From contig JAHJTW010000061.1 of the NCBI GenBank assembly GCA_018829565.1, positions 119 to 64,118 of the forward strand: a stretch of 64,000 bases of DNA, in the 5' to 3' direction. The position numbers and the translations under genes are program-made. Positions 5,281-63,492 of the stretch are shown here, one piece after another. The notes beneath the pieces were generated by a model. The model ran no database searches and was not told the origin of the DNA. It was given only the letters and a program-made list of their open reading frames with translations. The stretch comes from a bacterium (GTDB lineage Bacteria > Krumholzibacteriota > Krumholzibacteriia > LZORAL124-64-63). The number at the start of each line of letters is the position of its first letter. Positions within the stretch are counted from its first letter, which is position 1.

Positions 5281-5297
5281 CGGCCCCGCACATTTAT

Positions 5298-5326
5298 TTG
5301 ACTTCCGGCGACTCAAAGGATTTAAT
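5298..5326 (+). promoter_or_regulatory. sigma70-type promoter for the Rrf2-norB pair
   Basis: TTGACT (5298-5303), 17-nt spacer, TTTAAT (5321-5326). It is followed by GAGGTGA (5335-5341) and the ATG at 5347. Confidence 0.5.
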
Positions 5327-5346
5327 TGTCCGCTGAGGTGACGATC

Positions 5347-5748: not shown

Positions 5749-5826
5749 TTTTTTTTCCCCACTCAGGGGATAATAGGATGTCCTGATCTTTTGGACCCCG
5801 AGCGGCCCCCTGGCCATGGAGGAACG

Positions 5827-11435: not shown

Positions 11436-12620
11436 ATGAAGGAAGTCGTCGTCATCGCCGCCCGCCGCACCGCCGTGGGCAAGGCCCTGAAGGGGAGCCT
11501 GCGCCACACCCGTCCGGACGACCTGGGCGCCGCCGTGGTGCGGGACATCGTCGCGATGTTCCCCAAGCTCGACCCCGCGCGGATCGGGGACGTCATCATG
11601 GGCTGCGCCATGCCCGAAGGCGAGCAGGGCATGAACGTGGGCCGCAACATCGCCCTGATGTCCGGCTTGCCGGTCACCGTGCCCGGCATGACCGTCAACC
11701 GGTTCTGCAGTTCGGGCCTCGAGACCATCAACATCGGGGCCGCCCAGATCATGACCGGCCAGTCCGAGTTCGTGATCGCCGGCGGGACCGAGACCATGAC
11801 CATGGTGCCCATGGGGGGCCTGCGCTACCTGCCCAACCCCACCCTGGCCCGTGAACACCCCGAGTACCTGACCAACATGGGATTGACCGCCGAGAATCTC
11901 GTGGTTCGCGACGGGATCACCCGCGAGGCCCAGGACGAGTTCGCCTACCACAGCCACCGCAAGGCGGTCGAGGCCATCGCGGCCGGACGCTACGAGGGGG
12001 AAATCGTCCCGGTCATGGCGCAGCTGCCCGGGGTGGACAAGAAAGGCCGGCCCGTCACCGAGCAGGTGGAGTTCAAGGTGGACGAAGGCCCCCGCGCCGA
12101 CACCACCGTCGAGGCCCTGGCCAAGCTGAAGCCCGCCTTCAAGCAGGGCGGCACCGTCACCGCGGGCAACAGCAGCCAGATGAGCGACGGCGCCGCCGCC
12201 GTCATGCTGACCACGCCCGAACTCGCGGCCGCGATCGGGGCCGTGCCCCTGGCGCGATTCCTGGGCTACGCCGTCGCCGGCGTCGAACCCGAGATCATGG
12301 GCGTCGGCCCGGTGGCCGCGGTGCCCAGGATCCTGGCCCGGACCGGCCTGTCCCTGGAGCAGATGGACGTCATCGAGCTGAACGAGGCCTTCGCCGCGCA
12401 GAGCCTGGCGGTCTGCAAGCACCTGGGCCTGGATCCCGCCGACCCGCGCCTGAACCCCAACGGCGGAGCCGTGGCCCTGGGGCATCCCCTCGGATGCACC
12501 GGCGCCAAGCTGACCACCAGCGCCATCCACGAATTGAAGCGCCGGGGCGGCAAGTACGCCCTGGTCACCATGTGCATCGGCACCGGGATGGGTGCCGCCG
12601 GTATTTTCGAGGCGATCTAA
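11436..12620 (+). CDS. fadA: acetyl-CoA C-acyltransferase (degradative thiolase)
   Basis: 394 aa. [10 protein letters not shown] (active-site Cys), [23 protein letters not shown]. Confidence 0.9.
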
Positions 12621-15966: not shown

Positions 15967-17342
15967 AAACCATCGCCACCCTCCTCGTATCGCTCGCAGC
16001 CGGCCTTCTCCCCGCCGCCGGCCTGGCCCAGTACGGGTTCACGGTCGACGTTCCCCACCAGGGCGCGGTCGCCGACCTTGTCCAGCTGCATTCCTTCCAC
16101 AACACCGTGACCAACACCGGATCGGTCGCCGACACCTATGAGGTCGTCATCGCGCGCGACTTGCCCGGTGACTGGATCGCCTCCCTGTGCGAGGGGACCA
16201 TCTGCTACCCCCCCCACCTGAGCGTCATCACCTTCACCCTCGATCCAGGGGAATTCACCCAGCTCCTGGTGGACATCACCCCCCTGACCGACCAGGGCGA
16301 AGGTTCCGCCTCGGTGACGATCACCAGCCAGGGCCAGCCTGCCCTGAGCGAGCAGTTCGCGTTCACCGTCCTGAGCAGCGGGCTGGACGTCCTGCTGGTC
16401 GACGCCGACGGCGGCCTGGGGTACGAGACCTACTACCAGGGCGCCCTGACCGCTGCGGGGAAGACCTTCGGCACCTGGGACCGGGATCTGTTCGGCGTCC
16501 TGGCCGCCGAGGAACTCGGGGGGTTCGGGACCATCGTGTATGCGCTCGGGTCCGGCTCGGCGGGCCTGACGCCCGCCGATCTTCCCGCCCTGCAGGATCT
16601 GCTGCAGGCGGGCGGACAGGTCGTCGTCTCGGGCCAGAACGTGGTGCGGGACTTCTGCTCGGCCGGCGGCGTCCATTATTCGGCCGCCAACCGCCTGTGG
16701 TTCCGGAACGTCCTGGGTGTGGACTACGTCCTCGACGATGCCGACGACTCGACCGTGTCCGGAGTGATCGGCGATCCCGTCGCCGGCGGCCTCGCCCTGG
16801 CCATCAACGGGGGCACGGGCGCGAACGACAACACCGTCCAGGACGAGATCGCCCCGGTGGGCCCCGGTGCGGCCAGCCTGGAGTACTCGCCCGGACGGGC
16901 GGCCGCGGTACGGGCCTCGTACGGGCAGGGCCGCAGCTACGTGATGGGGTTCGGTTTCGAGGGCATCTCCTCCGATGCGTCCCGCAACGACCTGCTGGCC
17001 CGCATCTTCACCTGGATGGCCCAGCAGGTCTCCGGCGCCCCCGGGCCCGTGTCCGGTCTGTTCGTCCGCACGCCGGTGGTTGCCCCCAATCCCTTCAACC
17101 CCTTGACCCACCTGATGTTCGAGGTGGGCGGCGACACGCCCGTTCCGGGCTCGGTCGCCATCTTCGATCTGCGCGGCCGCCTGGTCGCCGACCTGTTCAG
17201 CGGGGCCTTTTATCCCGGCCCCCAGGACCTGGTCTGGAACGGCCGGGACCGGAACGGCAGGATCGCCGGCGGCGGGCTCTACCTCGCCCGGATCCGGGTC
17301 GCCGACCAGGTCCGGACCGTGAAGCTCACCCTTGCCAAGTGA
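15963..17342 (+). CDS. secreted protein with FlgD-Ig/T9SS-type C-terminal domain
   Basis: ATGA overlap with the upstream gene. Signal peptide MKTIATLLVSLAAGLLPAAGLAQ. C-terminus PNPFNPLTHLMFEV...AIFDLRGRLVADL...WNGRDRNGRIAGGGLYLARI. Confidence 0.75.
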   Translation: MKTIATLLVSLAAGLLPAAGLAQYGFTVDVPHQGAVADLVQLHSFHNTVTNTGSVADTYEVVIARDLPGDWIASLCEGTICYPPHLSVITFTLDPGEFTQLLVDITPLTDQGEGSASVTITSQGQPALSEQFAFTVLSSGLDVLLVDADGGLGYETYYQGALTAAGKTFGTWDRDLFGVLAAEELGGFGTIVYALGSGSAGLTPADLPALQDLLQAGGQVVVSGQNVVRDFCSAGGVHYSAANRLWFRNVLGVDYVLDDADDSTVSGVIGDPVAGGLALAINGGTGANDNTVQDEIAPVGPGAASLEYSPGRAAAVRASYGQGRSYVMGFGFEGISSDASRNDLLARIFTWMAQQVSGAPGPVSGLFVRTPVVAPNPFNPLTHLMFEVGGDTPVPGSVAIFDLRGRLVADLFSGAFYPGPQDLVWNGRDRNGRIAGGGLYLARIRVADQVRTVKLTLAK

Positions 17343-29310: not shown

Positions 29311-30417
29311 TTACCGCGCAGGATCATTCTGCAGGGCCGCTCTCGCGGCCCGTTCATCCTCGTGCAGGCGGCGGTGGCAGCGGGCGCACAGGGTGATCAG
29401 GTTCGCCAGGTCGTCCGTCCCGCCCTGGGCGGCCGGGACCCGGTGGTGGATCTCGAGGAATCCCGTGTTGGAGCAGCCGGGATACTCGCACGCGTAGCAG
29501 GCACGTCGCAGGACCGCCCGGCGGACGCGGGGCGGGATGACGGATCGGCGACGGCCGTCCAGATCCTCCACGATGGCGTCGCAGGCGGCCGCCGCTAGAA
29601 GGGGCGGCGAGGCCGCAACCTCGCCGCGCGGGGTAGGCAATGCGGCTTCGCCGCATGAAGGGCAGTGAAGGATGATCAGGGAATAGCGCGGGCCCGTGGC
29701 CCCGCCTGATGGCGGGGCCGTTCCGCGCAAAGCATCAATAATGATATCTTCCCGCGCGTTGCCACCGGCTGTCTGTGCGGATTCAACCAGCCGACAGAAC
29801 TCGGCGTAATCCTCCCCCGCGAAAACCAGGGTGACGTGATGCTTCGCATCCAAAGGATGGGGTGGTTTTCGCTGGGGTGCCCTTGCCGTCGGGATGGCCG
29901 CCTTCCGGGGCGGCCCGGGCGGTGTGAGCACGGGAGGACTGCCAGGATGGGCCGCCTCAGCGGGGGCCGATTCAGGGGCAGCCGGTGCTTTCTCCGAAAG
30001 CGCCGGCATTCTGCGCAGTTGCCGGGCCGTCAAGTCCTGGGCGGCATCGATCCATGCGCTCTGATCCGCTGGATCCGCCCGCGTGGTGATCAACTGGGCC
30101 TGGGTCCACGACAGCCGCCCCTCCCCGAGAGCCGATTCCACTTCCGGGAAACTCGGTAACCGTCGAGCCAGGGCGAGGAAGTCCGCGACCTGGCGCTCGG
30201 TCAGGCCGGCCGCCGCCTTCCCGTATGCGGCCATGGTCGAAAATCCGAGCTTGCGGTAGACCCGGCACTCCTTGATCTGCAGCAGGTAGTATGCGGTCCG
30301 CACCAGGTCCTTCCGCAGAGCCTTGACCGAAACCACGAAATTGTTGTGAAGCGACGCTTCGCCCGGCGTCAGGCCTTGCCTGGCGGCCACATCGAGGGAA
30401 ATCCGTTCGTCCGTCAT
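29311..30417 (-). CDS. HNH endonuclease domain protein (DUF222-like N-terminus)
   Basis: C-terminal CYACEYPGCSNTGFLEIHHRVPAAQGGTDDLANLITLCARCHRRLH (HNH with a Cys4 zinc knuckle). The N-terminal helical domain resembles actinobacterial DUF222/13E12-type proteins. Confidence 0.8.
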   Translation of the reverse strand: MTDERISLDVAARQGLTPGEASLHNNFVVSVKALRKDLVRTAYYLLQIKECRVYRKLGFSTMAAYGKAAAGLTERQVADFLALARRLPSFPEVESALGEGRLSWTQAQLITTRADPADQSAWIDAAQDLTARQLRRMPALSEKAPAAPESAPAEAAHPGSPPVLTPPGPPRKAAIPTARAPQRKPPHPLDAKHHVTLVFAGEDYAEFCRLVESAQTAGGNAREDIIIDALRGTAPPSGGATGPRYSLIILHCPSCGEAALPTPRGEVAASPPLLAAAACDAIVEDLDGRRRSVIPPRVRRAVLRRACYACEYPGCSNTGFLEIHHRVPAAQGGTDDLANLITLCARCHRRLHEDERAARAALQNDPAR

Positions 30418-45100: not shown

Positions 45101-45985
45101 TCAGCGCAGCTTGAGCCTGCGCCCCACCTTGAGGGCGGTCTTGACGGGCTTGCGGTTGGCGATCCTCTGCAGGGAATGGAGGATCCCCCCGAGCCGCCGC
45201 GTCCGCTCCAGGTCGGCCTGGAAATCTTCCCCCTCCGCTCCAATCCGGCGCTCCAGGCGCTCACCAACGAAGGCGACCAGCTGAAGGTCGAGATGGTTGA
45301 GCTGCCGGATGCGCTCGGCCAGGCCGCCGGGCAAGCCCGGGCCATCCTGCCGGGGCCGGGAAAAGTCGACGTTCCTGCGGGGATAGGCGACCCTGCCCCA
45401 GCCCAGCGCGCGTTTCATCAGGACCACCGACTCGTCGAATCGCTCCTGAAGGCCCGCCACCAGAAAGTGGTCCTCGAGGTTGGCCTGGGCCCGCCGCAGG
45501 GCTTCATCGGGCAGGGGTTCGGGGTAGGGAGACAGCGGATGCTGGAAGTCCACCCAGCCGGAGATCAGCCGGGTCTGGAAGTTGAGGGCGTTCCGTTCCT
45601 GCTGGAAGTCCAGGAACGCCTCCAGGGACTTCAATCTCCCGGCGGGAATGCCCATCTCCTCGGCCCGCTCGGGCCTCCGCACGAGGTTGTGGTACTTGGA
45701 CACCGTCCGCTGGACCGGATCCCGCAGGATGGTGATGTAATCGCATTCCCGCCCGATGAACCGGTCCAGTCCGTAGGGCATGTGCCCCCGGAAACAGAGG
45801 GCGCCGTCGGTCCGGTCGGGGGTCAGGGAGGCCAGGACCTCGGGGGCGTCGGGGCGGTGCAGGTCGCAGATGACCGTCCGGGACCGGGGATACTCCCTCG
45901 CGAGGATGGCATGCAGGGTCGAACCTGCCGCCTTGGGGATGTGCACGAAGACCACCGGCCTGGTCTGCTGTCGCCTGTCCGTCAC
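45101..45985 (-). CDS. sulfotransferase family protein
   Basis: VVFVHIPKAAGSTLHAIL is the PAPS 5-prime-phosphosulfate binding loop of family-2 type sulfotransferases, followed by ITILRDPVQRTVSKY. Confidence 0.7.
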   Translation of the reverse strand: MTDRRQQTRPVVFVHIPKAAGSTLHAILAREYPRSRTVICDLHRPDAPEVLASLTPDRTDGALCFRGHMPYGLDRFIGRECDYITILRDPVQRTVSKYHNLVRRPERAEEMGIPAGRLKSLEAFLDFQQERNALNFQTRLISGWVDFQHPLSPYPEPLPDEALRRAQANLEDHFLVAGLQERFDESVVLMKRALGWGRVAYPRRNVDFSRPRQDGPGLPGGLAERIRQLNHLDLQLVAFVGERLERRIGAEGEDFQADLERTRRLGGILHSLQRIANRKPVKTALKVGRRLKLR

Positions 45986-45998
45986 GCCCTCCGCCCCT

Positions 45999-47120
45999 TC
46001 AGTAGTTGTAGTCCAGGTCGGTGTCGGCCCGGGTCATCAGCAACCTCGTCGAATGTTCGAAGTGCTCCTGCAACGGCGCGTGTTCGGGTCTGCAGCCGCA
46101 ATGCCCGGTGATCCAGGCCCTGGCCGAGGTGAACAGGTAGCCGTTGTTCCGCAACATCCGGCGGAATCCCCGGTGATTGGAGATGGTGCAGGTGGCCTCG
46201 GCCACACCCCGGCTCCTGAACCAGGAGTCGGCCGCCTCCAGCAACCGGTTGGAAAGGGCCCTGTCATCCTGGGACGCCATCAGATCCACGACGAACCCGC
46301 GGCGGAGCGGACCCGCATCCTCCTCCCGCACGATCACGTATCCCGCCAGGCGTCCGGACCGGCGGGCGGCCAGGGTCGTGTATCTGCGGTTGGGACAGTC
46401 CCGGAAACGCCAGTTCAGGAAGGCCCGGTCCCGGACGGCCACCATGGCGAAGGTGGGTGCGATCTCCTCCCAGAGATCGTCGAACTCCGGGCCGAAGTCG
46501 CCGACCTCCTCGATGGTCGCCGACCGGTCCACCGGCCCCCGCAGGACCAGACGCACCAGGCCGGAGGCCAGGGAAATCGGTGCGGTGCCCAGGACGGCCA
46601 GGACGGGATTCATCCCCTGGGCGCGCAGGAACCGCAGGGGGCGCAGCATCCGCTTGCAACTGACCAACCTGGTGATCTCGAAGGCCCCGAACTTGATGGG
46701 CAGCCTGGCGAGATCGTACGAGCTGGCGGTGCCTGCGATGAGCTTCTCGGACCCTGAGGCGATTTCCAGGAAGAAACGGTACCCCTGGGGGCGGTGTTCC
46801 TTCAGGAGGGCCAGCTCCGAACCCCAGGCGATGGGGAAGATCCGGTCGTCCACCTTCATCCAGGTGGAGAGCAGGCCCAGGAATCCCACCGGTTCGCCGT
46901 CGCAGGTCATGACCATGGAGTTGTGGCCGCCCGGCAGGTGGTGGGGATTCCGGTCGTACTTCCAGGACCAGGTGCGGGCCATGTCCGCGCGGAAGTCCCC
47001 GCCCCAGATCTCGCCCAGGATGTCCAGGAGCTTCTCGCGATCCTCGGGGAGGAAGCGCCGCATCGCATAGACGCCCGGGGCCGCGGTTTCATTCCGCACC
47101 GGACGGACCTCGCCCAGCAT
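45999..47120 (-). CDS. tandem GNAT-fold acyltransferase
   Basis: Two GNAT-like halves (…EPVGFLGLLSTW…HRPQGYRF… and …GYVIVREED…FVVDLMAS…WFRSRGVAEA…). The start overlaps the FAAL stop (TGATG). Confidence 0.6.
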   Translation of the reverse strand: MLGEVRPVRNETAAPGVYAMRRFLPEDREKLLDILGEIWGGDFRADMARTWSWKYDRNPHHLPGGHNSMVMTCDGEPVGFLGLLSTWMKVDDRIFPIAWGSELALLKEHRPQGYRFFLEIASGSEKLIAGTASSYDLARLPIKFGAFEITRLVSCKRMLRPLRFLRAQGMNPVLAVLGTAPISLASGLVRLVLRGPVDRSATIEEVGDFGPEFDDLWEEIAPTFAMVAVRDRAFLNWRFRDCPNRRYTTLAARRSGRLAGYVIVREEDAGPLRRGFVVDLMASQDDRALSNRLLEAADSWFRSRGVAEATCTISNHRGFRRMLRNNGYLFTSARAWITGHCGCRPEHAPLQEHFEHSTRLLMTRADTDLDYNY

Positions 47121-48883
47121 CAGCCCGCACCCAGGATCTCGAGCCCTCCGGCGAGATACAGTTCGCGGCTTTCCCCCCGCCTGATCTTGCCGCTGGAGGT
47201 GCGCGGAATGCCGCCGGGCTTGACCATCACCAGGTCGTGGAGCTGGAGTTCGTGATCCAGGGCGACCTGGTCCCGCACCGCAGAGAGGATCTGCCCGGCC
47301 AGTTCACCGTCGGCCTCGGATCTCAGGCGGTGGAAGAAGGAGCGGCTCACCTCTGCCACGACGACCAGCTTCTCCTGTTCGCCGTCGTCGACGGCGAAGG
47401 CGGCGGTGCCGTTGGCGGCGATCCCCTCGTGCGCCTCCTCCACGCTCAGCTCGACGTCGTTGGGATAGTAGTTGCGGCCCCGGATGACGATCAGGTCCTT
47501 CAGCCGGCCGGTGATGAACAGCTCGCCCCCGCGCAGGAAACCAAGGTCTCCGGTCCGCATGAACGGGCCGCGTCCGGTGTCCAGCCGGGCCCCGAAGGTC
47601 TCCCGGCTTCCGGCCTGGTCGTTGAAGTAGCCGCGCGCGACGCTTTCCCCGCCGACCCAGATCTCTCCGATCTGCGAATCTGCGCACACCGCTGCGCTTT
47701 CCGGTTCCACCACGAGGACCTCGAGGTCGGTGGCAGCCCGCCCGCAGCCCACCAGCTGGCGGGAACCCGCACCGGGCAGGCGCCGGGTCTGGATCCGGTT
47801 TTCGGTCAGCGCCCCGCCGTCGACCCTCACGATCTCCGGCTGCCGGGGACGCGGCCCGCCGGTGGCGATCAACGTCACCTCGGCGAGACCGTAACAGGGA
47901 AAGAAGGCCTCCTTGCGGAATCCGTACCGCTCGAAGGCCTTCGCGAAGCGTTGGAGGGTGCCGGCCCGGACCGGCTCGGCGCCCACGTACGCCACCTGCC
48001 AGCAGGAAAGGTCGAGATCGAGCCCCCCATCCGCCGCCGCAGCGGCCTGGGCGCACAGATCGAAGGCGAAGTTGGGTCCCCCGCAGGTCGTTCCCCGGTA
48101 CCGCGAGATGGCCTCGATCCAGGCGAGGGGCCGCTTGAGGAACGCCAGCGGAGGGATCAGGTAGGTCGCGCCGCCGGCGTAGACCGGCTGCAGGAGGTTG
48201 CCGAGCAGGCCCATGTCGTGGAAGACCGGCAGCCAGGCCACGCCGACCAGGTCGGAGTCGTGCTCCATGGACTCGAGAATGGCCCGCTCGTTGTGCATGA
48301 TGTTGCCGTGGCTGACCATCACGCCCTTGGGCGCGGCGGTGCTGCCGGACGTGTACTGCAGGAAGGCGATGGCCTCCGGGGGGAGGGGGACTTCCCGCCA
48401 GGCGTCGGCGCCGTCGGGACCCACGGCATCGGTGGCGATCACGGCCATCGCACCCGGCGCCAGCTGGTTCACCATGGCCTCGACGCCCGCGGCCACCTCG
48501 GCCACGGTCAGGATCGCAGCCGGGCCGCAATCCTTCACGATCCCGATGAGACGGCCGTCCAGCTGGTTCTTGCGGGGAGGATAGGCCGGCACCGCGATCA
48601 TCCCCGCATAGAGGCAGCCGAAGAAGGCCGCGGCGAATTCCAGGCCGGGCGGGTAAAGCATGAGCATCCGGCTGCCGGGCTTGAACCGCTCCTGGAGGGC
48701 GGCGGCGATGGCCCGGGCCGAGGTGTCGAGCTGCGCGTAGCTGAGGCCGTCGGCCTCGTTCACGCCGTCCCGCAGGAAGCCGTAGACCTGTTTCTCCGGA
48801 GTCTCGTGCGCGCGGCGTCGCAGGACGGCCGCCAGGTCCCCCTCCGGCGGGTTCAGGTCGGGACGCGGGGCGGGCAGACTCAT
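47120..48883 (-). CDS. fatty acyl-AMP ligase (FAAL)
   Basis: LSYAQLD..ARAIAAAL, MLMLYPPGLEFAAAFFGCLYAGMIAVPAYPP, YTSGSTAAPKGVMVSHGN, GDLGF..GELFITGRLKDLIVIRGRNYYPNDVE. ATGA coupling to the ACP gene. Confidence 0.85.
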   Translation of the reverse strand: MSLPAPRPDLNPPEGDLAAVLRRRAHETPEKQVYGFLRDGVNEADGLSYAQLDTSARAIAAALQERFKPGSRMLMLYPPGLEFAAAFFGCLYAGMIAVPAYPPRKNQLDGRLIGIVKDCGPAAILTVAEVAAGVEAMVNQLAPGAMAVIATDAVGPDGADAWREVPLPPEAIAFLQYTSGSTAAPKGVMVSHGNIMHNERAILESMEHDSDLVGVAWLPVFHDMGLLGNLLQPVYAGGATYLIPPLAFLKRPLAWIEAISRYRGTTCGGPNFAFDLCAQAAAAADGGLDLDLSCWQVAYVGAEPVRAGTLQRFAKAFERYGFRKEAFFPCYGLAEVTLIATGGPRPRQPEIVRVDGGALTENRIQTRRLPGAGSRQLVGCGRAATDLEVLVVEPESAAVCADSQIGEIWVGGESVARGYFNDQAGSRETFGARLDTGRGPFMRTGDLGFLRGGELFITGRLKDLIVIRGRNYYPNDVELSVEEAHEGIAANGTAAFAVDDGEQEKLVVVAEVSRSFFHRLRSEADGELAGQILSAVRDQVALDHELQLHDLVMVKPGGIPRTSSGKIRRGESRELYLAGGLEILGAG

Positions 48884-49218
48884 GCGATGGACCTGCCCAG
48901 ATCCAGCTTGCCGACCAGGAATTCCACCAGAGAATCGATGGTCGGGTAGTCCCACAGCAGGGTCGGCTCGAGCTCGACGCCCAGGGACTTCTCCAGCAGA
49001 CCGGTGAACTTCATCGCCTGCAGGGAATCGAATCCGAGCTGGGCGAAGGTCTTGGCGGTGTCGATGTCCTGCGGGGCCACCTGGGCCAGACCGGCGACCG
49101 CCGTCACCAGACCCCTGCGGACCTCATCCTCGCTTCGCGGCATGCGGTCGAAGACCAGGCCTTTCTTCCGGCGTCCCAGCCCCACCACCGAAAGCACTTT
49201 CGTTACCATTGCACCCAT
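48880..49218 (-). CDS. acyl carrier protein
   Basis: GAGGAG RBS. FAQLGFDSLQAMKF is the phosphopantetheine Ser motif. Only the last 112 codons of track ORF 48880..50073 are used. Confidence 0.85.
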   Translation of the reverse strand: MGAMVTKVLSVVGLGRRKKGLVFDRMPRSEDEVRRGLVTAVAGLAQVAPQDIDTAKTFAQLGFDSLQAMKFTGLLEKSLGVELEPTLLWDYPTIDSLVEFLVGKLDLGRSIA

Positions 49219-49268
49219 TCGGATCTCCTCGGTTGGACCGGCACGCAGGCCGGCGGGTATGCGCCGCC

Positions 49269-50231
49269 TCAGGCGACGGCGCGATCGTCGCCCAGCGCTG
49301 CCTTGCGCTTGTCTTCCGGCGTCTCCACCACGTTCCAGACCAGACCGACGGCCTTGAGCATCCGGATCACCAGGGCTCCCAGATCGGGCTCGTACCAGCG
49401 GAAACCGTGAAAGGCGTCCCGCGGAAACGCGTGGTGGTTGTTCTGCAGTCCCTCGCCGCAGCCGACCAAGGCCACCAGCAGGTTGTTGGTGCTGTGGTCC
49501 CGGGTGCGGTGCACGTAGGGGCGCAGGCCGACCATGTGGCAGATCGAACCGACGCACCACAGCACGTGATCCACCACGCAGATCCGGACCAGGCCGCCCC
49601 ACAGGAATCCCAGGAACGCTCCCTGCCACGAACCCGCGATGAGGCCCCCGGCCACCGTCGGCAGGAGCAACCCCAGGAAGAAGAAGGGGAAGTAGAGCTG
49701 ATGGATCCTGAACACCTGCCGGTCGTTCATCATGTCCCGCGCAAACATCCCCCAGTTGCTGATCCGGTCGGAGAACATCCAGGCGATGTGGCCCTGCCAG
49801 AATCCCTTGATCACCCGCCACAGGCCCGATCCCTCGACGAGCTGGGGCGAATGGGGATCGCCCTCCTGGTCGCTGAGCCGGTGGTGGCGGCGATGGGTGG
49901 CCACCCACCAGATGATCGGCCCCTGACCCGCCATGGATCCCAGCGCCCCCAGCACCATGCGCATGGCGGGACTGGTATCGAAGGACCGGTGGGCAAAATG
50001 GCGGTGGAATCCCACCGTCAGTCCCATGACCGTCAGCAGGTATCCCGTCAGGAAGATGCCGATCTCCATCCACCCGATTCCCTGGGTGAAGGCCAGATAG
50101 ATGGCCAGGATGGTGGCGAGGAAAGGCACGACGATGATCAGCCCCGCGACCGTCCGCAGACGGCGCCGCTCGGTCGGACCGGCCACCGTATAGGGCGACA
50201 TGTCCAGGCCGGGCATGGTTTCGTTGGCCAT
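49269..50231 (-). CDS. membrane fatty-acid desaturase (Delta9/stearoyl-CoA desaturase family), copy 1
   Basis: Three His boxes: HRHFAHR, HRRHH, HNNHHAF. Four hydrophobic spans. Confidence 0.85.
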   Translation of the reverse strand: MANETMPGLDMSPYTVAGPTERRRLRTVAGLIIVVPFLATILAIYLAFTQGIGWMEIGIFLTGYLLTVMGLTVGFHRHFAHRSFDTSPAMRMVLGALGSMAGQGPIIWWVATHRRHHRLSDQEGDPHSPQLVEGSGLWRVIKGFWQGHIAWMFSDRISNWGMFARDMMNDRQVFRIHQLYFPFFFLGLLLPTVAGGLIAGSWQGAFLGFLWGGLVRICVVDHVLWCVGSICHMVGLRPYVHRTRDHSTNNLLVALVGCGEGLQNNHHAFPRDAFHGFRWYEPDLGALVIRMLKAVGLVWNVVETPEDKRKAALGDDRAVA

Positions 50232-50234
50232 GAG

Positions 50235-51185
50235 CTAACCCTCCACGGAAGGAGACATGCCGGCGTCAGGCCGGCGTTGACCCTTGAACGACGCGGCGTC
50301 CGGGTAATGGACGTCCCAGGCCAGGTGAGCCCGATCCAGGATCCGCACGATCAGCCCGCACACGTCCAGCTGCCACCAGTGCAGCCGGTTGTCCGCCGCC
50401 CTGGGAAAGGCATGGTGGTTGTTGTGCCAGCCGCCCCCCAGCGAGGGCAAGGCGATGATCGCCAGGTTGCGGCTCTGCTCCCGGGTGGGAAAGGGCCGGC
50501 TGCCGAAACGGTGGCAGAGGGAGTTGACCCCCCAGACGGCGTGGTGCACGAGGAAGATCCTGCCCAGTCCCCCCCAAAGCAGGCCCTTGAACGCACCGAT
50601 CACCGTCCCGTAGTGCAGCAGACCGGCCGCCGCCGGAATCGCCAGGCCGAGAAGCATCCAGACGAAGTAGAGCTGGTTGAGCCGGAACAGCCGGGAATCC
50701 TTGACCAGATCGGGGATGTACCGCAGCCAATCCGACTGGACGGGCTGGAAGAGCCAGCCCATGTGGGCGTGGAACAGACCAGCCAGCCACCCCCGGAAAC
50801 CGGAACCGCTCAGACACGGTGAATGGGGGTCGCCCTCCTGGTCCGAGAAGGCGTGGTGACGCCGGTGGGTGCTGGCCCAGTAGAGAGCCGGCCCCTGGGC
50901 GGCCATGGATCCGAGGACGACCAGGGCGCCTTCGATGAAACCCGTGGTCCGGAAAGCCCGGTGCGAAACGTAGCGATGGAGACCCAGTTCGACCCCGATC
51001 ACCGTCAGGAGGTACATCACCAGCAGGAGAACCCAGTCGAAGGTGGTGACCCCCGTCTCGAAGGCCAGCCAGACGGCCGCGAGGGCGCCGGCGGCAGGCG
51101 TCCACACCACCCCGTGGGTGATGAGGGCCATGGCGCGGCGGCCGGCGGCGTTGGTTTCGAGGGCGCCTGATCCGTTGGATTGCAT
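50235..51185 (-). CDS. membrane fatty-acid desaturase (Delta9 family), copy 2
   Basis: His boxes HRYVSHR, HRRHH, HNNHHAF. ATG at 51185 with GGAGAG upstream. 3-nt gap to copy 1. Confidence 0.85.
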   Translation of the reverse strand: MQSNGSGALETNAAGRRAMALITHGVVWTPAAGALAAVWLAFETGVTTFDWVLLLVMYLLTVIGVELGLHRYVSHRAFRTTGFIEGALVVLGSMAAQGPALYWASTHRRHHAFSDQEGDPHSPCLSGSGFRGWLAGLFHAHMGWLFQPVQSDWLRYIPDLVKDSRLFRLNQLYFVWMLLGLAIPAAAGLLHYGTVIGAFKGLLWGGLGRIFLVHHAVWGVNSLCHRFGSRPFPTREQSRNLAIIALPSLGGGWHNNHHAFPRAADNRLHWWQLDVCGLIVRILDRAHLAWDVHYPDAASFKGQRRPDAGMSPSVEG

Positions 51186-51262
51186 GGAATGGCTCTCCGG
51201 AAGCCTGGAAATCGTGAATATCGTCCCCCACACCGACCCGACCCTGACTTTGATTCGGGATT

Positions 51263-52145: not shown

Positions 52146-52541
52146 CTACCCCGCGATCACGCGGGCCTTGTAACCGTAACGGATGACCTCCCACGCCGGC
52201 CCGTGCTGCAAGCGGCGGAAGACGATCTCCACCTCGGTGCCGATGTCGACCTCGTCGGGCGGCGCCTCGCTGATCATGACGGTCAGGCGCACCCCGTTCT
52301 CCAGCTCGACGATGGCGTTGACGTAGGGTTTCTGGTCGTCGAACTCCGCGGGCGGAATCCACACCGTGGTGCAGGTGACGACCTTGCCGCGCCGCGGCAG
52401 CTCGACGGTTTCGAACTCGCGGGCGAAGCACTTGCGGCAGACCTTGCGCGGGGGGAAGTGGATCTCGCCGCACTTGGTGCACTTGCCGGCCTCCAGGCGG
52501 TAGCGCTGGGGCTTTTCCCGGTGATAACGCGGACTGATCAT
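52146..52541 (-). CDS. DUF35 OB-fold/zinc-ribbon protein (thiolase-HMGCS scaffold)
   Basis: [18 protein letters not shown] zinc ribbon followed by an OB-fold. ATGA overlap with the thiolase gene. Confidence 0.85.
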
Positions 52542-53695
52542 TGTTCCACCTCCAGGATGTGCACGGTGCAGCTGCCGCCCGATCCGCCCATGTTCTGGGC
52601 CAGGCCGCGCCGGGGGTTCTTCAACTGGCGCCCACCGGCGTTGCCGGTGAGCTGGGCGTAGAGCTCGCAGATCTGGGCGATTCCCGTGGCCCCCACCGGA
52701 TGACCCTTGCTCTTAAGGCCGCCCGAGGTGTTGACGGGGAACTCGCCGTCGCGCGCGGTCTTGCCGGCTGCGGCCGCGGGCCCGCCCTGGCCGGGCTCGA
52801 AGATCCCCAGTTCCTCGGTGCAGACGATCTCGGCGATGGTGAAGCAGTCGTGGACCTCGGCGAAATCGATGTCCCGGATGGTGAGTCCTGACTGCTTGAA
52901 CGCTCGCTGCGCAGCCAGCGCCACCACCGGAATGGTCGAGGGGTCCTTCCGGTCGTGCAAGGCGATGGCGTCGGTGGCATGTCCCGAACCGATGATCTTC
53001 ACCACCGGCTTGCCCAGCTTGCGCGCGAACTCCACCGGAGCCAGCAGGACGCAGGCCGCCCCGTCGGTCACCGGCGAGCAGTCGAACAGACCCAGGGGCT
53101 CGGCCACCCGGACGGCGCCCAGCACCGTCTTCTCGCTGATCTCCAGGGGGAACTGGGCCTTGGGATTCTTCGCGCCGTTGCGGTGGTTCTTCACCGCGAC
53201 CGCGGCCAGCTGCTGGGGCGTGGTGCCGTGCTTGGCCATGTGCGCCTTGGCGATCATGGCGTACAGGCCGGGGAAGGTGACCCCGTTGTAGGCCTCGTAT
53301 TCCTGATCCGCGGCGGTGGCCAGACAGTAGGTCGCGTCGGCCCCGTCGTTCATCTTCTCCACGCCGCCGGCCAGGACGAAATCGCTGGCTCCGCTGGCCA
53401 CCTCGAGGTAGGCCGCCCGGAAGGCGGCGCCGCCCGAGGCGCAGGCCGATTCGACCCGGGTGGCCGCCAGACCCCGCAGCCCCGCATAATCGCAGAGCAC
53501 CGACGCCAGGTGTTCCTGGCCCACGAACAACCCGCTGGTCATGCATCCGATGTAGGCCGACTGCACCTGGTCCCGGGCCACGCCCGCATCCTCCAGACAG
53601 TCGGCGCAGGCGATGGCGAACAGGTCCCGCAAGGAGGTATCCCAGAGTTCCCCGAAGGGCGTCAAGCCCATGCCGATGACAGCAACGTCTCTCAT
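52538..53695 (-). CDS. archaeal-type acetoacetyl-CoA thiolase
   Basis: [44 protein letters not shown]. 385 aa, SCP-x-like thiolase class. Confidence 0.85.
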
Positions 53696-53708
53696 GTCGT
53701 CCTCCTTT

Positions 53709-54758
53709 CTAGACCTCGTTCATGCGGATCTTGCCGCGGTATGCCACGTATTTTCCGTAACCGAGATGGATGCGGCGGTCGGCCAGCAGTCCGCGCACCG
53801 TGGGCGCCAGCCCCTGCACCTTGGGCAACCGGTCGGTGCAGCGCAGGATGAACGAGTCGCTGCCGGCGCCGCTGCCGAACGAGGTGATCAGGATGTGGTC
53901 GCCGGGCTTGGCCACGTCCAGACAGGCCGCCAGCCCGGTGGGCGAAGAACCGCTGTAGGTGTTGCCCATGAGGTTCACCACCCAGCCCTGCTCCATCTGC
54001 TCCTGGGTGAAGCCCAGGGTCTTGCCCGCCTTCAGGGGGAACTTCCCGTTGGGCATGTGGAAGACGGCGTAGCGGAAGTCCGCGGGCTCCATGCCGCTGC
54101 GGTCCAGGATGCCGCGAGTGGCGCTCAGCACGTGGTGGAAGTAGGCCGGTTCCCCGGTGAAGCGCCCGGCATGGCGGGGATAGAACTCCCCCTCGCGGCG
54201 CCAGAAGTCGGGCGTGTCCGAGGTGAACGAGTAGGTGTGCAGGATCTCGGCGACGAGATTGTCACCGCCCATGATGAAGGCCGAACCGCCCGCCGAGGCC
54301 GTGTATTCCAGGGCGTCGCCGGGCGCGCCCTGGCTGGTGTCGGCCCCGATGCCCAGGGCGTACTTCATCTCCCCGCTCTTGACGTGGCTGTAGGCCACGT
54401 ACATGGCCTCGCTGCCGGCCTTGCAGGCGAACTCGAAGTCGGCGACGTGGCATTCGGGGCCGATGCCCAGGGCGTCGATGACCACGGTCCCCGAGGGTTT
54501 CACGGCGTAGGGATGGCTCTCCGACCCGATGTAGCAGGCCCCGATCAGCTGGGGATCGATGCCCGCCCGCACCAGGGCGCTGCGGGCCGCGGCCACGCTG
54601 ATGGTGATGGTGTCCTCGTCGGGACCAGGAACGGTCTTCTCTTCAAGCAGGAGCCCCCGCTTGAAAGCCTCCGCATCCGCTCCCCACTGGTTCGCGATGT
54701 CCTCGGCCTTGATCCTGAAGCGCGGCACGTAAGCGCCATAACCCACAATCCCGTACAT
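53709..54758 (-). CDS. archaeal-type hydroxymethylglutaryl-CoA synthase
   Basis: [43 protein letters not shown]. 349 aa. GGAGAAGGAG RBS at 54767-54776. Confidence 0.85.
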
Positions 54759-54848
54759 GGTTGCCACTCCTTCTCCGTTAGGAAAAAAACACCGGGCGCG
54801 ATTGTACCAGCACCGCACCCGGAGCACAAGGCTGGCGAATGGACGTTT

Positions 54849-59220: not shown

Positions 59221-59886
59221 TCAGGCCAGATCGGCGTCCTCTCCCTGCAGGATGCACTTGACCTTGAAGCTCAGGGCCATGATGCCGACGGCGAGCCGCT
59301 CGTTGCGGACGGCCACCCCGTCGGGAACCTTCAGGTCGGTGGGGGCGAAGTTGAAGATCCCCACGACGCCGGCTGCCACCAGCCGGTCGGTGACCGCCTG
59401 GGCGTGGGAGGCCGGAACGGTCAGGATGGCGATCTTGACGTTCTCCTTGCGGATCAACGCCTCCATCTCGTCCATGTCCCGGATGGGCTGGCCGCGGATC
59501 TCGAGGCCGAGGAGCTTGGGATTGACGTCGAAGATGCCCCGCACGGGGAATCCCTGGACGTCCAGGTTCTGGTAGTTGGCCAGGGCCTGACCCAGATGCC
59601 CGGCCCCGACGATCACCGTCGGCACCGGCTCGGCGATGCCGATGATCTGCTCGAGAGCCGGCACCAGCTTGGCCACCTGGTAGGGCCGGCCCGGCCGGCT
59701 GAACCCCCCGAAGTAATGGAAATCATGGCGCAACTGGCTGGCCTTGATGTCCAGGGATTCGGCGAGCTGGCGGCTCGACACGTCCTCGACGCCGATGGCC
59801 TGAAGCAGCTTCAGTTTCTCCAGATACAGGGGCAGCCGGTGGATGGTGGCATCGGGTACGTCGCACCCCTTGCGCTTCTTTCTCAA
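59221..59886 (-). CDS. rex: redox-sensing transcriptional repressor Rex
   Basis: VPDATIHRLPLYLEKL, SSRQLAE..DIKASQLRHDFHYFGGF, IVGAGHLGQALANY, IAILTVPA. The TTG at 59886 has GGAGG 7 nt upstream; an alternative ATG lies at 59919. Confidence 0.85.
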   Translation of the reverse strand: MRKKRKGCDVPDATIHRLPLYLEKLKLLQAIGVEDVSSRQLAESLDIKASQLRHDFHYFGGFSRPGRPYQVAKLVPALEQIIGIAEPVPTVIVGAGHLGQALANYQNLDVQGFPVRGIFDVNPKLLGLEIRGQPIRDMDEMEALIRKENVKIAILTVPASHAQAVTDRLVAAGVVGIFNFAPTDLKVPDGVAVRNERLAVGIMALSFKVKCILQGEDADLA

Positions 59887-59902: not shown

Positions 59903-59918
59903 TGTGATTGGATTAACA
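59903..59918. promoter_or_regulatory. Rex-box-like palindrome upstream of rex
   Basis: TGTGA-TTGGAT-TAACA versus the Rex consensus core TGTGA-N6-TCACA (one mismatch). Confidence 0.4.
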
Positions 59919-60163
59919 TTCTTTCTGCAACCGCAGCGAATTCTGTTACGGTTTTGACAGCATACTGTACCTCACCTGTCAATTTTCGTCAAGGGGGACC
60001 ACGGGACGCGGGGCTACCCTGCCTCCACGCATCCGGGACCAAGATTTATTGGAGCTTTGTCCCTGCGCCCCATATCTTTGCCCCGTCCATCGCCTGCCCG
60101 AAAAGGCGGACAAAACGACCGACATATCCGGAAACCGAGCAGAACCTACCTGGACGGGTGATC

Positions 60164-62101
60164 ATGGGTAACCGTTTCCTGATCGAGGATCCCTGGCTCC
60201 TGAATCCGTTGCCCCGTTACGGGGAACTGGGCCCCGCGGACTACTCCGCTCTCGGGTTCATGTGCGGACTCGAGGTCCACCAGCAGCTGCTGACCAGGCG
60301 CAAGCTGTTCTGCCGCTGTCCGGCCGGGCAGTACAACCAGGGCGAACACCAGGCCGAGGTGCTGCGGCACATGCGGCCCACCCTCTCGGAGATGGGCGAG
60401 TACGACGGCACCGCCCTGATGGAGTTCAAGACCCGCAAGGACATCATCTACCACCTCAACCAGAACACGGTCTGCACCTACGAGATGGACGACGCCCCCC
60501 CGTTCGAGATGGACGACGAGGCCCTGGACATCAGCATCGCCATCACCATGATGCTCGGCTGCAACGTGGTCAGCGAGGTGCACATCACCCGCAAGCAGTA
60601 CCTGGACGGCAGCATCCCCACCGGCTTCCAGCGGACGGCCATCATCGGCACCGACGGCGACGTCCCCTTCCGGGGCCGCACCGTGCACATCCGCCAGCTC
60701 AGCATCGAGGAGGATTCCTGCCGGGAAGTCAGCGACCAGGGCCACGTGCGGGTCTACCGGACCGACCGCCTGGGCATGCCCCTGATCGAGACCGTCACCG
60801 ACCCCGACATGAAGACGCCGGAGGAGGCCATGGCGGTCGGCCAGGTGCTGCGCCACCTGTGCCGGGCCAGCGGCATGGTCCGCACCGGCAGCGGGGCGGC
60901 CCGCCAGGACGTCAACGTCTCGGTGACGGGCGGGACGCGCATCGAGATCAAGGGCGTCCCCAGCCTGAGGGCCATCCCCCGTCTGACCCACAACGAGGCG
61001 CTGCGCCAGCGCACCCTGCTCGGCATCCGCGCCGAACTCCAGCGGCGGGGGATCACCGCCGAGGACATCGCCGACACGGGATTCGACGTGACGGCCATCG
61101 TGCGCGGCACCGAGTGCCGGTTCATCCGCAAGGCCGTGGACAAGGGGGCGACCGTCCTGGCCATCCCCCTGCCCGGGTTCCAGGGCCTCCTCGAGGTCCA
61201 GACCCAGCCCCGCACCAGCTTCCTGAAGGAATTCAGCGACCGCATCCGCGTGATCGCCTGCATCGACGACCTGCCCAACCTGGCCCTGTCGACCCAGGAC
61301 GTCCCGACCCTCAGCAGCCGGGACTGGAACCGGGTGGCCAACGTCTGCAAGGTGGGCCAGGACGTGCCGGTGGTCCTGGTCTGGGGGACCGAGCGCGACA
61401 CGCGGACCGCCGTGAAGGAGATCGCCATCCGGGCCCGGGAGGCCGTCGCGGGCGTCCCGCAGGAGACCCGGCAGGCCCTGGACGACGGGACCAACGGCTT
61501 CGAGCGCGTCCTGCCCGGGGCCGACCGCATGTACCCGGACACCGATCTGCCGCCCATCGGGTTGAGCGACGAGCGGGTGGACGCCATCCGGTCATCCCTG
61601 CCCTCGCCCCCCTGGGAGAAACGCCGGCTGCTGACCGAGGCGGGCGTCGGTCCCGATCTGGCCGAACGCCTGAGCCGCCACCGCGCCTACGACCTCTTCG
61701 AGGCCCTGCGGACCCGCCTGGACACCTCCGGCGCCGCCGCCTTCGGCCCCCACCAGCTGGCCAGCCTGCTGCTGGACCGGTCCAGCCCCCGGCCCGCGAG
61801 CCTCGGCGCCGCGGGATCCTGGTGGGAAGAGACCATCGACCGCCTCGTCCGCGGGGACGTCCTGCCCGAGGCCGTCTGGAGCAGCGAGGAGGAACTGGCC
61901 GTTCCCCTGCCCGAGGCCGAGGCCCGGCGCCTGGTGACCGGCCTGGCGACCGCGTCCCTGGCGGACGGCGGCCTGCCCGAAGACCCCGCCCGGAAGGAAC
62001 ACGCCCTGATGGGACGTGTCATGCCCACGGCCCGCGGCCGCGTGCCCGGAAGCGCCGTCCGGCGCTGGATCGCCGAACACCTCAAGGAGACCCGCCAGTG
62101 A
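60164..62101 (+). CDS. gatE: Glu-tRNA(Gln) amidotransferase subunit E (archaeal type)
   Basis: 645 aa. GLEVHQQL...KLFCRCP, RPTLSEMGEYDGTAL, YLDGSIPTGFQRTAIIG, LSIEEDSCR, LGMPLIETVTDPDM, RQDVNVSVTGGTRIEIKGV, followed by the roughly 120-aa insertion and a YqeY-like tail. This is colinear with methanogen GatE as I remember it and too long for GatB. Confidence 0.85.
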   Translation: MGNRFLIEDPWLLNPLPRYGELGPADYSALGFMCGLEVHQQLLTRRKLFCRCPAGQYNQGEHQAEVLRHMRPTLSEMGEYDGTALMEFKTRKDIIYHLNQNTVCTYEMDDAPPFEMDDEALDISIAITMMLGCNVVSEVHITRKQYLDGSIPTGFQRTAIIGTDGDVPFRGRTVHIRQLSIEEDSCREVSDQGHVRVYRTDRLGMPLIETVTDPDMKTPEEAMAVGQVLRHLCRASGMVRTGSGAARQDVNVSVTGGTRIEIKGVPSLRAIPRLTHNEALRQRTLLGIRAELQRRGITAEDIADTGFDVTAIVRGTECRFIRKAVDKGATVLAIPLPGFQGLLEVQTQPRTSFLKEFSDRIRVIACIDDLPNLALSTQDVPTLSSRDWNRVANVCKVGQDVPVVLVWGTERDTRTAVKEIAIRAREAVAGVPQETRQALDDGTNGFERVLPGADRMYPDTDLPPIGLSDERVDAIRSSLPSPPWEKRRLLTEAGVGPDLAERLSRHRAYDLFEALRTRLDTSGAAAFGPHQLASLLLDRSSPRPASLGAAGSWWEETIDRLVRGDVLPEAVWSSEEELAVPLPEAEARRLVTGLATASLADGGLPEDPARKEHALMGRVMPTARGRVPGSAVRRWIAEHLKETRQ

Positions 62102-63492
62102 GCCAGACGCACGAGGACTTCAAGGGCTACCGCAGCCCCACCCTGGACCTGCTGCAGCGCGAGGGTTCCCCGGTCTGGTCCCAGGTGACCCTGCACACCA
62201 CCCGCGGCGACTTCACGGGCCTGATCCTGCCCCGCAGCGAGACCGCCGACGAGCTTCACATCGTGCTGAAGCTGGCCACCGGGTACAACATCGGGATCCG
62301 CCACGACACCGTACGGTCCATCAGCGTCCACGGGCGCAAGGTGGCCAACTACCAGATCCCCGAGAAGGAGTTCCCCTTCGACCCCGGCAAGCCCCGGGTC
62401 AAGCTGTTCGGCACCGGGGGCACCATCGCCAGCCGGCTGGACTACCGCACCGGCGCGGTGATCCCCGCCTTCAGTCCCGGCGAGCTGTACGGCTCGGTGC
62501 CCGAACTGGCGGACATCTGCAACATGGAGACCGAGAAGCTGTACGGGGTCTTCAGCGAGAACATGGGCCCCGAGCAGTGGATGGGCACGGCCCGGGCCAT
62601 CGCCGCCGAGATCGAGAAGGGCGTGGCCGGGATCGTGGTGGGCCACGGCACCGACACCATGCACCATACCGCCGCCGCCCTGAGCTTCATGCTGCAGGAC
62701 TCGCCCGTGCCCATCGTGATGGTGGGCAGCCAGCGCAGCAGCGACCGGCCCAGCTCCGACGCGGCCATCAACCTCATCAACGCCACGCGAACCGCCGCCA
62801 CCAGCGACATCGCCGAGGTGATGGTCTGCATGTTCGGCCCCACCAGCGACGAGTACGGGTTGCTGCACCGGGGGACGCGCGTGCGCAAGATGCACTCCTC
62901 CTACCGCTCGACCTTCCGCACCCTCAGCGACATCCCCCTGGGCAAGGTCGATCCCGCCTCCGGGGTCACCCCCTTCCGGGAGGACTACAAGCGGCGGCGC
63001 GACGACAACCGGGTCGACCTGAAGGCCGTCTTCGACGACCGGGTCTCGCTGGTCTACTACTATCCCGCGATGAAGCCGGACGTCATCGACTCCCTGGTCG
63101 CCAACGGCTACAAGGGGATCATCATCGCCGGCACCGGTCTGGGCCACGTCAACAAGCCGCTCTATCCCGCGCTGCAGCGGGCGTACGACGCCGGCGTCCA
63201 CGTCTACATGACCGTGCAGACCATGTGGGGCTACGTGCAGATGTACGTGTACGAGACGGGGCGAGAGATCATGGGCCTCGGCGTGATCCCCGCGGCGAAC
63301 ATGCTGCCCGAGGTGGCCTACGTGAAGCTGGGGTGGGCCATGGGCCAGTCGCAGGACCGCGAAGAGGTCAAGCGGATCATGATGACTCCCGTGGCCGGCG
63401 AGATCACCGAGCGCGAGCCCCACAACGGGTACCTGGTGTTCCAGGGCGGCATCCCCGAGGTGGACCAGTTCATCTCGACCCACTGGAAGTAG
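62098..63492 (+). CDS. gatD: Glu-tRNA(Gln) amidotransferase subunit D (asparaginase-like)
   Basis: GTG overlaps the gatE stop (GTGA), with AAGGAG 8 nt upstream. N-terminal LKLATGYNIGI domain, then GTGGTIASRLDYRTGAV, VGHGTDTMHHTAAALSF, VGSQRSSDRPSSDAAINL, RVRKMHSS, AGTGLGHV. Confidence 0.85.
   Translation: MSQTHEDFKGYRSPTLDLLQREGSPVWSQVTLHTTRGDFTGLILPRSETADELHIVLKLATGYNIGIRHDTVRSISVHGRKVANYQIPEKEFPFDPGKPRVKLFGTGGTIASRLDYRTGAVIPAFSPGELYGSVPELADICNMETEKLYGVFSENMGPEQWMGTARAIAAEIEKGVAGIVVGHGTDTMHHTAAALSFMLQDSPVPIVMVGSQRSSDRPSSDAAINLINATRTAATSDIAEVMVCMFGPTSDEYGLLHRGTRVRKMHSSYRSTFRTLSDIPLGKVDPASGVTPFREDYKRRRDDNRVDLKAVFDDRVSLVYYYPAMKPDVIDSLVANGYKGIIIAGTGLGHVNKPLYPALQRAYDAGVHVYMTVQTMWGYVQMYVYETGREIMGLGVIPAANMLPEVAYVKLGWAMGQSQDREEVKRIMMTPVAGEITEREPHNGYLVFQGGIPEVDQFISTHWK

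Follow-up and report, generated by a model that had tools for sequence, protein, structure and literature searches.

Subunits encoded by the gatE-gatD pair

The window analyzed here, a 64,000-nt stretch of contig JAHJTW010000061.1 (assembly GCA_018829565.1) from a bacterium of the phylum Krumholzibacteriota, carries two tandem genes, gatE and gatD, for the two subunits of the tRNA-dependent amidotransferase GatDE. This enzyme has been called exclusively archaeal or an archaeal signature protein in publications from 2008 to 2022 (PMC2330236, PMC8007984, PMC8762117, PMC9499178), and the accessible text of PMC2811023 likewise confines it to archaea. The features of the locus are collected in Table 1. 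Direct reading of the sequence bore out the original prediction of two translationally coupled open reading frames (ORFs), with the GTG start codon of gatD overlapping the TGA stop codon of gatE and an AAGGAG motif 8 nt upstream. A 4-nt overlap was also the commonest junction among loci of the bacterial clade described below (24 of 70), some 50 of which place the two genes between -11 and +12 nt of each other.

Table 1. Features of the gatE-gatD region, in window positions
Feature	Position	Strand	Description
rex	59221-59886	-	Redox-sensing repressor gene, oriented divergently from gatE; TTG at 59886 is the probable start
Two Rex-box-like inverted repeats	59903-59918, 59944-59959		TGTKA-N6-TSACA
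Conserved noncoding blocks CAAGATTTATTGGAGCTTTG and CATATCTTTGCCCC	60040-60084	+	Candidate gatED promoter, ~80-120 nt before the ATG
gatE	60164-62101	+	ATG start, 645 aa; GatE subunit
GatE C-terminal tail	61709-62098	+	aa 516-645; probable YqeY/GatB-tail homologue
gatE/gatD coupling signal	62084-62101	+	AAGGAG at 62084-62089, 8-nt spacer, GTG; GTGA overlap at 62098-62101
gatD	62098-63492	+	GTG start, 464 aa; GatD subunit with GatD N-terminal domain

The product of the first gene is GatE and not GatB, in agreement with its initial assignment. It exceeded the cut-offs of the NCBIfam GatE models NF003107 (494 bits versus 456, with a match limited to residues 25 to 518) and TIGR00134 (425.5 versus 319.55 bits), whereas none of the GatB equivalog models passed (84 to 144 bits against cut-offs of 315 to 680; the best of them, 144 bits, had a cut-off of 338). 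Residues 26 to 516 aligned colinearly with the solved chain 1zq1_C (E=4e-101), the protein was also colinear with 2d6f_C, and both alignments included the insertion domain (residues 290 to 425). The protein combines a cradle domain like that of GatB with an insertion resembling AspRS and has, in addition, a helical region and a diverged tail. The Pfam GatB_N match stretches over 440 residues for a model of 277 positions, and the GAD domain (PF02938) is recorded in databases for some bacterial GatE homologues. The Mg2+ ligands of Methanothermobacter thermautotrophicus GatE were identified by mutagenesis as H15, E157, and E184 (PMC2330236); they align with H39, E182, and E209 of the window protein and are invariant among 60 bacterial homologues. 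The AlphaFold2 (AF2) model of GatE reached a predicted local distance difference test score (pLDDT) of 78 and a predicted template modeling score of 0.71. Foldseek searches with this model returned 1zq1_C and 2d6f as top matches (E=1e-38; TM, 0.72), with 32 to 36% identity to the solved archaeal GatE structures, followed at lower ranks by GatB chains and then by weak AspRS matches, which fit the GatE insertion domain.

The C-terminal tail deserves separate mention. Residues 519 to 645 matched neither GatE nor GatB_Yqey models beyond the last ~30 aa (GatB_Yqey, E=0.22, with the Pfam match at aa ~630 to 645). However, a profile built from 20 bacterial GatE tails (A1) matched the archaeal GatE tail of 1zq1_C (E=1e-22) as well as GatB tails and YqeY, and GatB_Yqey was matched by 19 of the 20 individual tails. 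In the AF2 model this region folds as a confident helical bundle (pLDDT, 85 to 95). Because the family profile recognizes archaeal, GatB, and YqeY tails while model matches to the protein itself fail, the tail appears to be a homologue of the YqeY/GatB tail that has strongly diverged in Krumholzibacteriota. The YqeY-like tail proposed at the outset thus stands at the family level, although GatE and Pfam models do not detect it in the window protein.

The second product is GatD and not a stand-alone asparaginase, again as proposed. Of the GatD family models used (TIGR02153 and NF003217), TIGR02153 scored 513 bits (cut-off, 324), and Pfam identified GatD_N (PF18195; 42.7 versus 25.7), Asparaginase, and Asparaginase_C domains. 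Sequence comparison with solved structures ranked the two archaeal GatDE complexes first for both products, and for this one the match to 1zq1_A had E=5e-121. The motifs TGGTIAS (aa 106), HGTDTM (aa 183), GSQRSSDRPSSDA (aa 210), and VRKMH are intact, including those carrying the catalytic residues T109, T185-D186, and K264, and are likewise conserved in every bacterial relative inspected. Type I L-asparaginases share the fold and active site of GatD over residues ~100 to 440 (TIGR00519, 393 bits). Unlike them, the window protein has the additional PF18195 domain, scores higher with the GatD equivalog model, and is encoded in a gene coupled to gatE; its matches to asparaginases in the Protein Data Bank (PDB) did not exceed 134 bits, whereas GatD chains in the PDB gave 395 to 407 bits.

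The pair therefore has the same two subunits and domain order as archaeal GatDE, known from the structures of Pyrococcus abyssi (1ZQ1) and M. thermautotrophicus (2D6F, with tRNA(Gln)). Shared traits are the GatD N-terminal domain followed by an asparaginase core with its Thr / Thr-Asp-Lys site and, in GatE, the His/Glu/Glu Mg2+ ligands, the AspRS-like insertion, and, probably, a tail of the YqeY type. The window pair differs from archaeal GatDE in its bacterial host, in a GatE tail that escapes the GatE and GatB_Yqey models, and in the fixed gatE→gatD order of its clade, usually with a 4-nt overlap, an order shared by one Asgard-labeled genome. In bacterial GatCAB, GatB resembles GatE in having a cradle catalytic domain (Pfam GatB_N), a YqeY-type tail, and kinase plus amidase chemistry on mischarged tRNA. 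GatB lacks the GatE insertion of ~165 residues, and its partners are the amidase GatA and GatC, whereas that of GatE is the asparaginase-type GatD.

Bacterial host and distribution of the pair

The genes around gatE-gatD are those of a bacterium. SSF symporter, SPOR protein, FabH, Rex, and ZIP transporter genes lie nearby, and those for qNor with an Rrf2 regulator, TetR, FadB/thiolase/acyl-CoA dehydrogenase, PEGA, AtuA, and peptidases are found farther away in the window. Pfam searches verified the FabH, SPOR, and Rex assignments on which the original prediction had based its bacterial context. As for the FlgD/T9SS-type C-terminal domains that it had also listed, the ORF at 15963-17342 gave a C-terminal FlgD_ig match below threshold (E=0.002), and a regular expression search for the T9SS motif found none. 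An identical protein is deposited at NCBI as "GatE [bacterium]," and the same protein is recorded in ENA, NCBI, and JGI sources.

The nearest genome in GTDB, a metagenome-assembled genome (MAG) of the Krumholzibacteriia (L001), encodes a GatE and a GatD that are 95% and 98% identical to those of the window, and further Krumholzibacteriota MAGs have GatE proteins with 64 to 77% identity. The GC content at third codon positions (GC3) of gatE, 0.89, equals that of neighboring genes. Synonymous divergence (dS) from L001 was 0.09 to 0.10 for gatE and gatD and 0.12 to 0.15 for fabH, rex, and the symporter and SPOR genes, with ratios of nonsynonymous to synonymous divergence (dN/dS) of 0.23 for gatE, 0.095 for gatD, and 0.11 to 0.29 for the neighbors. 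The rex/fabH-gatE-gatD arrangement was found again in the independent MAGs L001, L002, L006, and L008, and the SPOR and symporter genes also belong to the recurring synteny. The pair is thus vertically inherited under purifying selection within Krumholzibacteriota, and the host is bacterial, as had been assumed. The notion of a bacterial-archaeal chimeric contig or of binning contamination draws on the prior expectation that GatDE is archaeal, and we found no evidence in its favor. Neighbor-like GC3, dS, and dN/dS values together with synteny across independently assembled MAGs exclude both a chimera and a recent insertion, and with related pairs inside closed bacterial chromosomes and the same protein on record from three sources, an artifact is almost inconceivable. 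In the gatE gene of the Krumholzibacteriota-like MAG L008, ARAGORN called a 92-nt "tRNA-Val(aac)" (11663-11754, + strand), probably a false positive.

A genome scan identified confirmed relatives in at least 591 GTDB species genomes, and the best 80 were taken for locus analysis. All of these 80 loci are bacterial, several of them on closed chromosomes of 3.8 to 5.0 Mb. Their labels, which are those of the submitters and in some cases unreliable, include Krumholzibacteriota, Ignavibacteria/Melioribacteraceae, Aminicenantes, KSB1, Phycisphaerae, Cloacimonetes, Bacteroidota, Chlorobiota, and Myxococcota. The gene order gatE→gatD holds in all 80 loci, and the two genes are adjacent in nearly all; in L064 and L069 they lie 1.5 and 3.3 kb apart. 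Clustering of the surrounding ORFs revealed no other gene family common to these loci, so gatE-gatD behaves as a self-contained two-gene module, and a larger operon or biosynthetic cluster was rejected on the same grounds. Neither was a second GatB-like paralogue found within ±10 kb of gatE in the 80 loci. The original prediction had envisaged a transfer into this lineage; instead, inheritance of the pair is vertical in Krumholzibacteriota, and the bacterial clade of which it is part extends across many phyla.

Between phyla, GatD is 68 to 76% identical and GatE 45 to 61%. Divergence is unevenly distributed along GatE: compared with other phyla, the cradle domain of the window protein retains 67 to 75% identity, on a par with GatD, whereas the insertion domain retains 42%, the helical region 29%, and the tail 19%. 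Pairwise distances of GatE and GatD correlate (r=0.80). These patterns indicate that the two subunits travel together and that the presumptive tRNA-binding surfaces change around a constant chemistry. Some members of the clade depart from the common form. P0122, a 943-aa protein from a Logan contig, consists of a tail-less GatE core (~residues 1 to 470) fused to a complete GatD and groups with the bacterial clade. P0123 and P0191 are GatD paralogues within this clade (96% bootstrap) that lack the catalytic residues, with AGGALAS in place of TGGTIAS and TGVATM in place of HGTDTM. In three contigs (L082 to L084), P0123 is encoded ~770 nt upstream of a gene for an AsnA-type asparagine synthetase, and the interval contains a 77-aa ORF. 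The existence of these dead paralogues and of the tail-less fusion indicates that the GatDE scaffold can be reused.

Origin of the bacterial clade

A search with GatD across 1.84 billion cluster representatives yielded 493 GatD-like clusters at E≤1e-30. In neighbor-joining (NJ) trees, the GatDs derived from the bacterial loci formed one clade with 87% bootstrap support, which rose to 96% with the inclusion of four more representatives, one of them in a clearly bacterial context. When rooted with three type I asparaginases as the outgroup, the tree nested this clade deep among the other GatDs in every one of 200 bootstrap replicates. With midpoint rooting, the bacterial set instead became the sister group of everything else; as root-to-tip lengths are very unequal (0.39 versus 0.84), the outgroup rooting was preferred. 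The nearest labeled archaeal relative is a Sigynarchaeota (Asgard) MAG, with identities of 34 to 37% for GatE and 47 to 48% for GatD, and another near GatD representative is located among eIF2, NMD3, and archaeosine-TGT genes. The Sigynarchaeota-labeled locus L086 (235-3586) carries gatE (648 aa) followed by gatD (464 aa), in the order and with the lengths of the bacterial clade, and its sample accession belongs to the same ENA series as the contig of the window. L087, another near archaeal representative, has gatD alone.

Since the outgroup-rooted tree nests the bacterial clade within archaeal diversity, these data support an old transfer from archaea to bacteria, probably a single one, followed by spread among bacteria, and the interdomain origin entertained in the original prediction fits this topology. 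Bacterial GatDE could alternatively be a vertical remnant of the last common ancestor that was lost from most bacteria. This would suit both the midpoint-rooted tree and the scenario of Sheppard and Söll, as cited in PMC9499178, in which both amidotransferases were present in LUCA (the last universal common ancestor). It is nevertheless very unlikely in view of the bootstrap-supported nesting of the clade, its patchy occurrence over distant phyla, the high identity of GatD between these phyla, and the fact that bacterial GatDs make up one or two clusters at 50% identity versus well over 100 for the rest.

Function, regulation, and significance of bacterial GatDE

We consider it probable that the window pair is a working GatDE-type tRNA-dependent amidotransferase of Krumholzibacteriota, belonging to a clade that entered bacteria once, long ago. 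By analogy with its archaeal counterparts, the complex would be heterodimeric, of the alpha2-beta2 type. GatD would hydrolyze Gln or Asn at its asparaginase-type Thr / Thr-Asp-Lys site, and the ammonia would pass to GatE, whose Mg2+-dependent cradle would phosphorylate and then amidate the Glu on tRNA(Gln) to yield Gln-tRNA(Gln). Within GatE, the tRNA would be held by the insertion domain and the tail. The likely substrate is Glu-tRNA(Gln). The alternative proposal of recruitment for another amidation found no positive support, and the catalytic residues and two-subunit architecture are intact; it is quite unlikely, but the rapid divergence of the tRNA-binding modules and the presence of GlnRS beside GatDE in at least one genome leave it some probability.

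Several observations weigh against this reading. Bacterial tRNA(Gln) normally has a U1-A72 pair, as opposed to the A1-U72 pair needed by archaeal GatDE. It is through A1-U72 and the D-loop that the archaeal enzyme picks tRNA(Gln) (PMC2330236, PMC9499178). The tRNA-binding modules of GatE, above all the tail of the window protein, are highly diverged. The trees behind the proposed origin are NJ trees in which most cluster representatives have no taxon label. Finally, GatDE is redundant in some carriers. In a Myxococcota-labeled MAG (L042), glnS (656-2422, - strand) diverges from gatE (2643-4625, + strand) at a distance of ~220 nt, and the 2014 census of PMC3927822 (with its Additional file 2) credits Ignavibacterium album with both GlnRS and gatCAB, blank cells in that table being read as presence of both on the strength of its entries for Thermus, Bacillus, and Bacteroides, which are known. 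GatE occurs in this genus, among others in closed genomes of 3.67 to 3.74 Mb and in a MAG attributed to I. album. The glnS gene of L042, initially found by tblastn with an Escherichia coli GlnRS query and then confirmed with NCBIfam, is genuine, as it scored 743 bits with TIGR00440 (cut-off, 426) and encodes HIGH and KMSKS motifs. L094, from another sample and 97.7% identical to L042 at the DNA level, has the same arrangement (glnS, 1-1149, - strand) and represents the same species-level lineage. In some carriers, GatDE is thus only one of the routes to Gln-tRNA(Gln), since GlnRS coexists with it in L042/L094 and in the I. album listing. The linkage to glnS was absent in three of the closest GatE relatives. 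Neither the window nor any of 94 loci yielded a tRNA-Gln gene, and the search of the window gave no tRNA gene of any kind. Downstream of gatD, L042 also carries genes for Impact_N and NFACT-R proteins.

A second aminoacyl-tRNA synthetase gene was found beside gatE in L023, where a bacterial-type aspS (2556-4427, + strand) lies directly upstream of gatE (4549-6432, + strand); gatD was not found in the 10 kb downstream of this gatE. Such adjacency to synthetase genes supports a role in translation, and it also bears on the possibility of a changed or widened substrate, namely, that bacterial GatDE amidates Asp-tRNA(Asn), either exclusively or in addition to Glu-tRNA(Gln), and so fills the role of GatCAB in bacteria that already have GlnRS. 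In addition to aspS in L023, the occurrence of GlnRS and GatDE on one contig in two assemblies and the listing of I. album with GlnRS are consistent with this idea, as is the fact that the tRNA-binding modules (insertion, helical region, and tail) evolve fastest. Moreover, archaeal GatDE chooses between Gln and Asn by means of tRNA elements and not of the amino acid (PMC2330236). However, use of Asp-tRNA(Asn) has been reported for no GatDE, each adjacency, to aspS and to glnS, is an isolated case with no counterpart among the nearest relatives, the gatCAB listed for I. album would cover Asn, and nothing in the window bears on the question. We therefore regard an Asp-tRNA(Asn) amidotransferase as unlikely.

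The spacer upstream of gatE suggests yet another interpretation, that of a nontranslational or conditional amidotransferase serving another amidation or a redox-controlled back-up route under Rex. The divergent gene encodes a protein with the Pfam domains Put_DNA-bind_N and CoA_binding, called with 221 aa on the source contig. Its TTG start codon is preceded by GGAGG at 7 nt, and L001, L002, and L006 share both this motif and the start region; provided that rex starts there, the untranslated gap of about 277 nt originally noted before gatE is correct. The two inverted repeats in this spacer are the only matches to TGTKA-N6-TSACA in the 64 kb, where 0.10 would be expected by chance, and Rex-box-like sites occupy the same place in L001 (two sites), L002, and L006. 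Given the known architecture of Rex operators, Rex would presumably bind at 59903-59959. The noncoding blocks CAAGATTTATTGGAGCTTTG and CATATCTTTGCCCC are conserved in the window and in the same three genomes, whose GatE proteins are 72 to 95% identical to that of the window, and may constitute the gatED promoter with a TAnnTTTG-like -7 element. No Rfam family matched the window.

These Rex-box-like sites, conserved in Krumholzibacteriota, the redundancy of GatDE with GlnRS in some carriers, and the dead GatD paralogues beside asnA together with the tail-less GatE::GatD fusion of the same clade would all accommodate a nontranslational or back-up enzyme. However, autoregulation of rex is the simplest reading of these sites, as their distance is 17 to 73 nt to the start of rex but exceeds 200 nt to gatE. 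Furthermore, the rex-gatE arrangement is confined to Krumholzibacteriota, no functional neighborhood is conserved around gatE-gatD in the 80 loci, and identities of 67 to 75% across phyla for the cradle and GatD are those expected if the reaction is unchanged. An enzyme of this kind is hence quite unlikely, and the "non-housekeeping regulation" initially read from the rex-gatE spacer is weak and unproven. Returning to a GatDE active in translation, a tentative extension, possible but with clearly less than an even chance, is that the bacterial enzyme is more than a mere replacement for GatCAB, in that it has kept its chemistry, retuned its tRNA-binding modules, and coexists with GlnRS, and perhaps with GatCAB, for a second purpose. 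That purpose could be Asn-tRNA(Asn) synthesis, clean-up of the Glu-tRNA(Gln) made by a nondiscriminating GluRS, or production of Gln-tRNA(Gln) under redox control.

Other genes of the window are described here as observations in their own right. At 52146-54827 (- strand), HMG-CoA-synthase-like (ACP_syn_III_C only), thiolase, and DUF35/ChsH2 OB-fold genes are adjacent, in an order that matches the archaeal thiolase/HMGCS/DUF35 complex; this is a second module of archaeal flavor, 5 kb from gatE-gatD. The cluster at 45101-51233 (- strand) comprises genes for two fatty-acid desaturases, an AMP-binding (DIP2/FAAL-like) enzyme, and a protein resembling galactose-3-O-sulfotransferase, together with an ORF of 373 aa that has no annotation, and may serve sulfated-lipid modification. 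At 5326-8112 (+ strand), an Rrf2-family regulator gene directly precedes one for a nitric oxide reductase of the quinol type, a NorB protein to which a cytochrome-c-like domain is fused. The ORF at 29311-30417 (- strand) has a C-terminal HNH endonuclease domain and a GC3 of 0.76, versus 0.88 to 0.95 in its surroundings, and may be mobile or foreign.

The window pair is a new bacterial member of a known family, correctly annotated, and nothing suggests new chemistry. Through the NCBI and JGI pipelines, these bacterial proteins carry the names GatE and GatD in databases already, whereas our search of the full-text literature found no paper describing GatDE in bacteria; of the proviso that the enzyme might prove widespread and already described, the first half thus applies, along with database annotation, but not a published description. 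What emerges is a large and coherent bacterial GatDE clade, sometimes beside GlnRS, contrary to reviews until 2022. GlnRS is reported absent from all archaea (PMC9499178), and coexistence with it sets bacterial GatDE apart from the archaeal enzyme. With a bacterial host here and glnS beside gatE-gatD in L042/L094, the view of GatDE as an archaeal signature enzyme, taken over in the original prediction, does not hold; an archaeal host and the absence of GlnRS are features of its distribution, not of the enzyme.

GatDE is the standard example of a domain-specific translation enzyme, and arguments on the aminoacylation machinery of LUCA, as well as on why archaea never acquired GlnRS, depend on its archaea-only status. 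Hundreds of bacterial species have genomes with an intact, selected GatDE, among them members of the genus to which the cultured I. album belongs, and this contradicts that statement. It raises the questions of what GatDE does in a bacterium with GlnRS and how GatE reads bacterial tRNA, which are tractable in cultured Ignavibacteria. If bacterial GatDE has indeed kept its chemistry and retuned its tRNA-binding modules, accounts of how glutamine came to be part of the genetic code could, at the least, no longer call GatDE an "archaeal signature enzyme."

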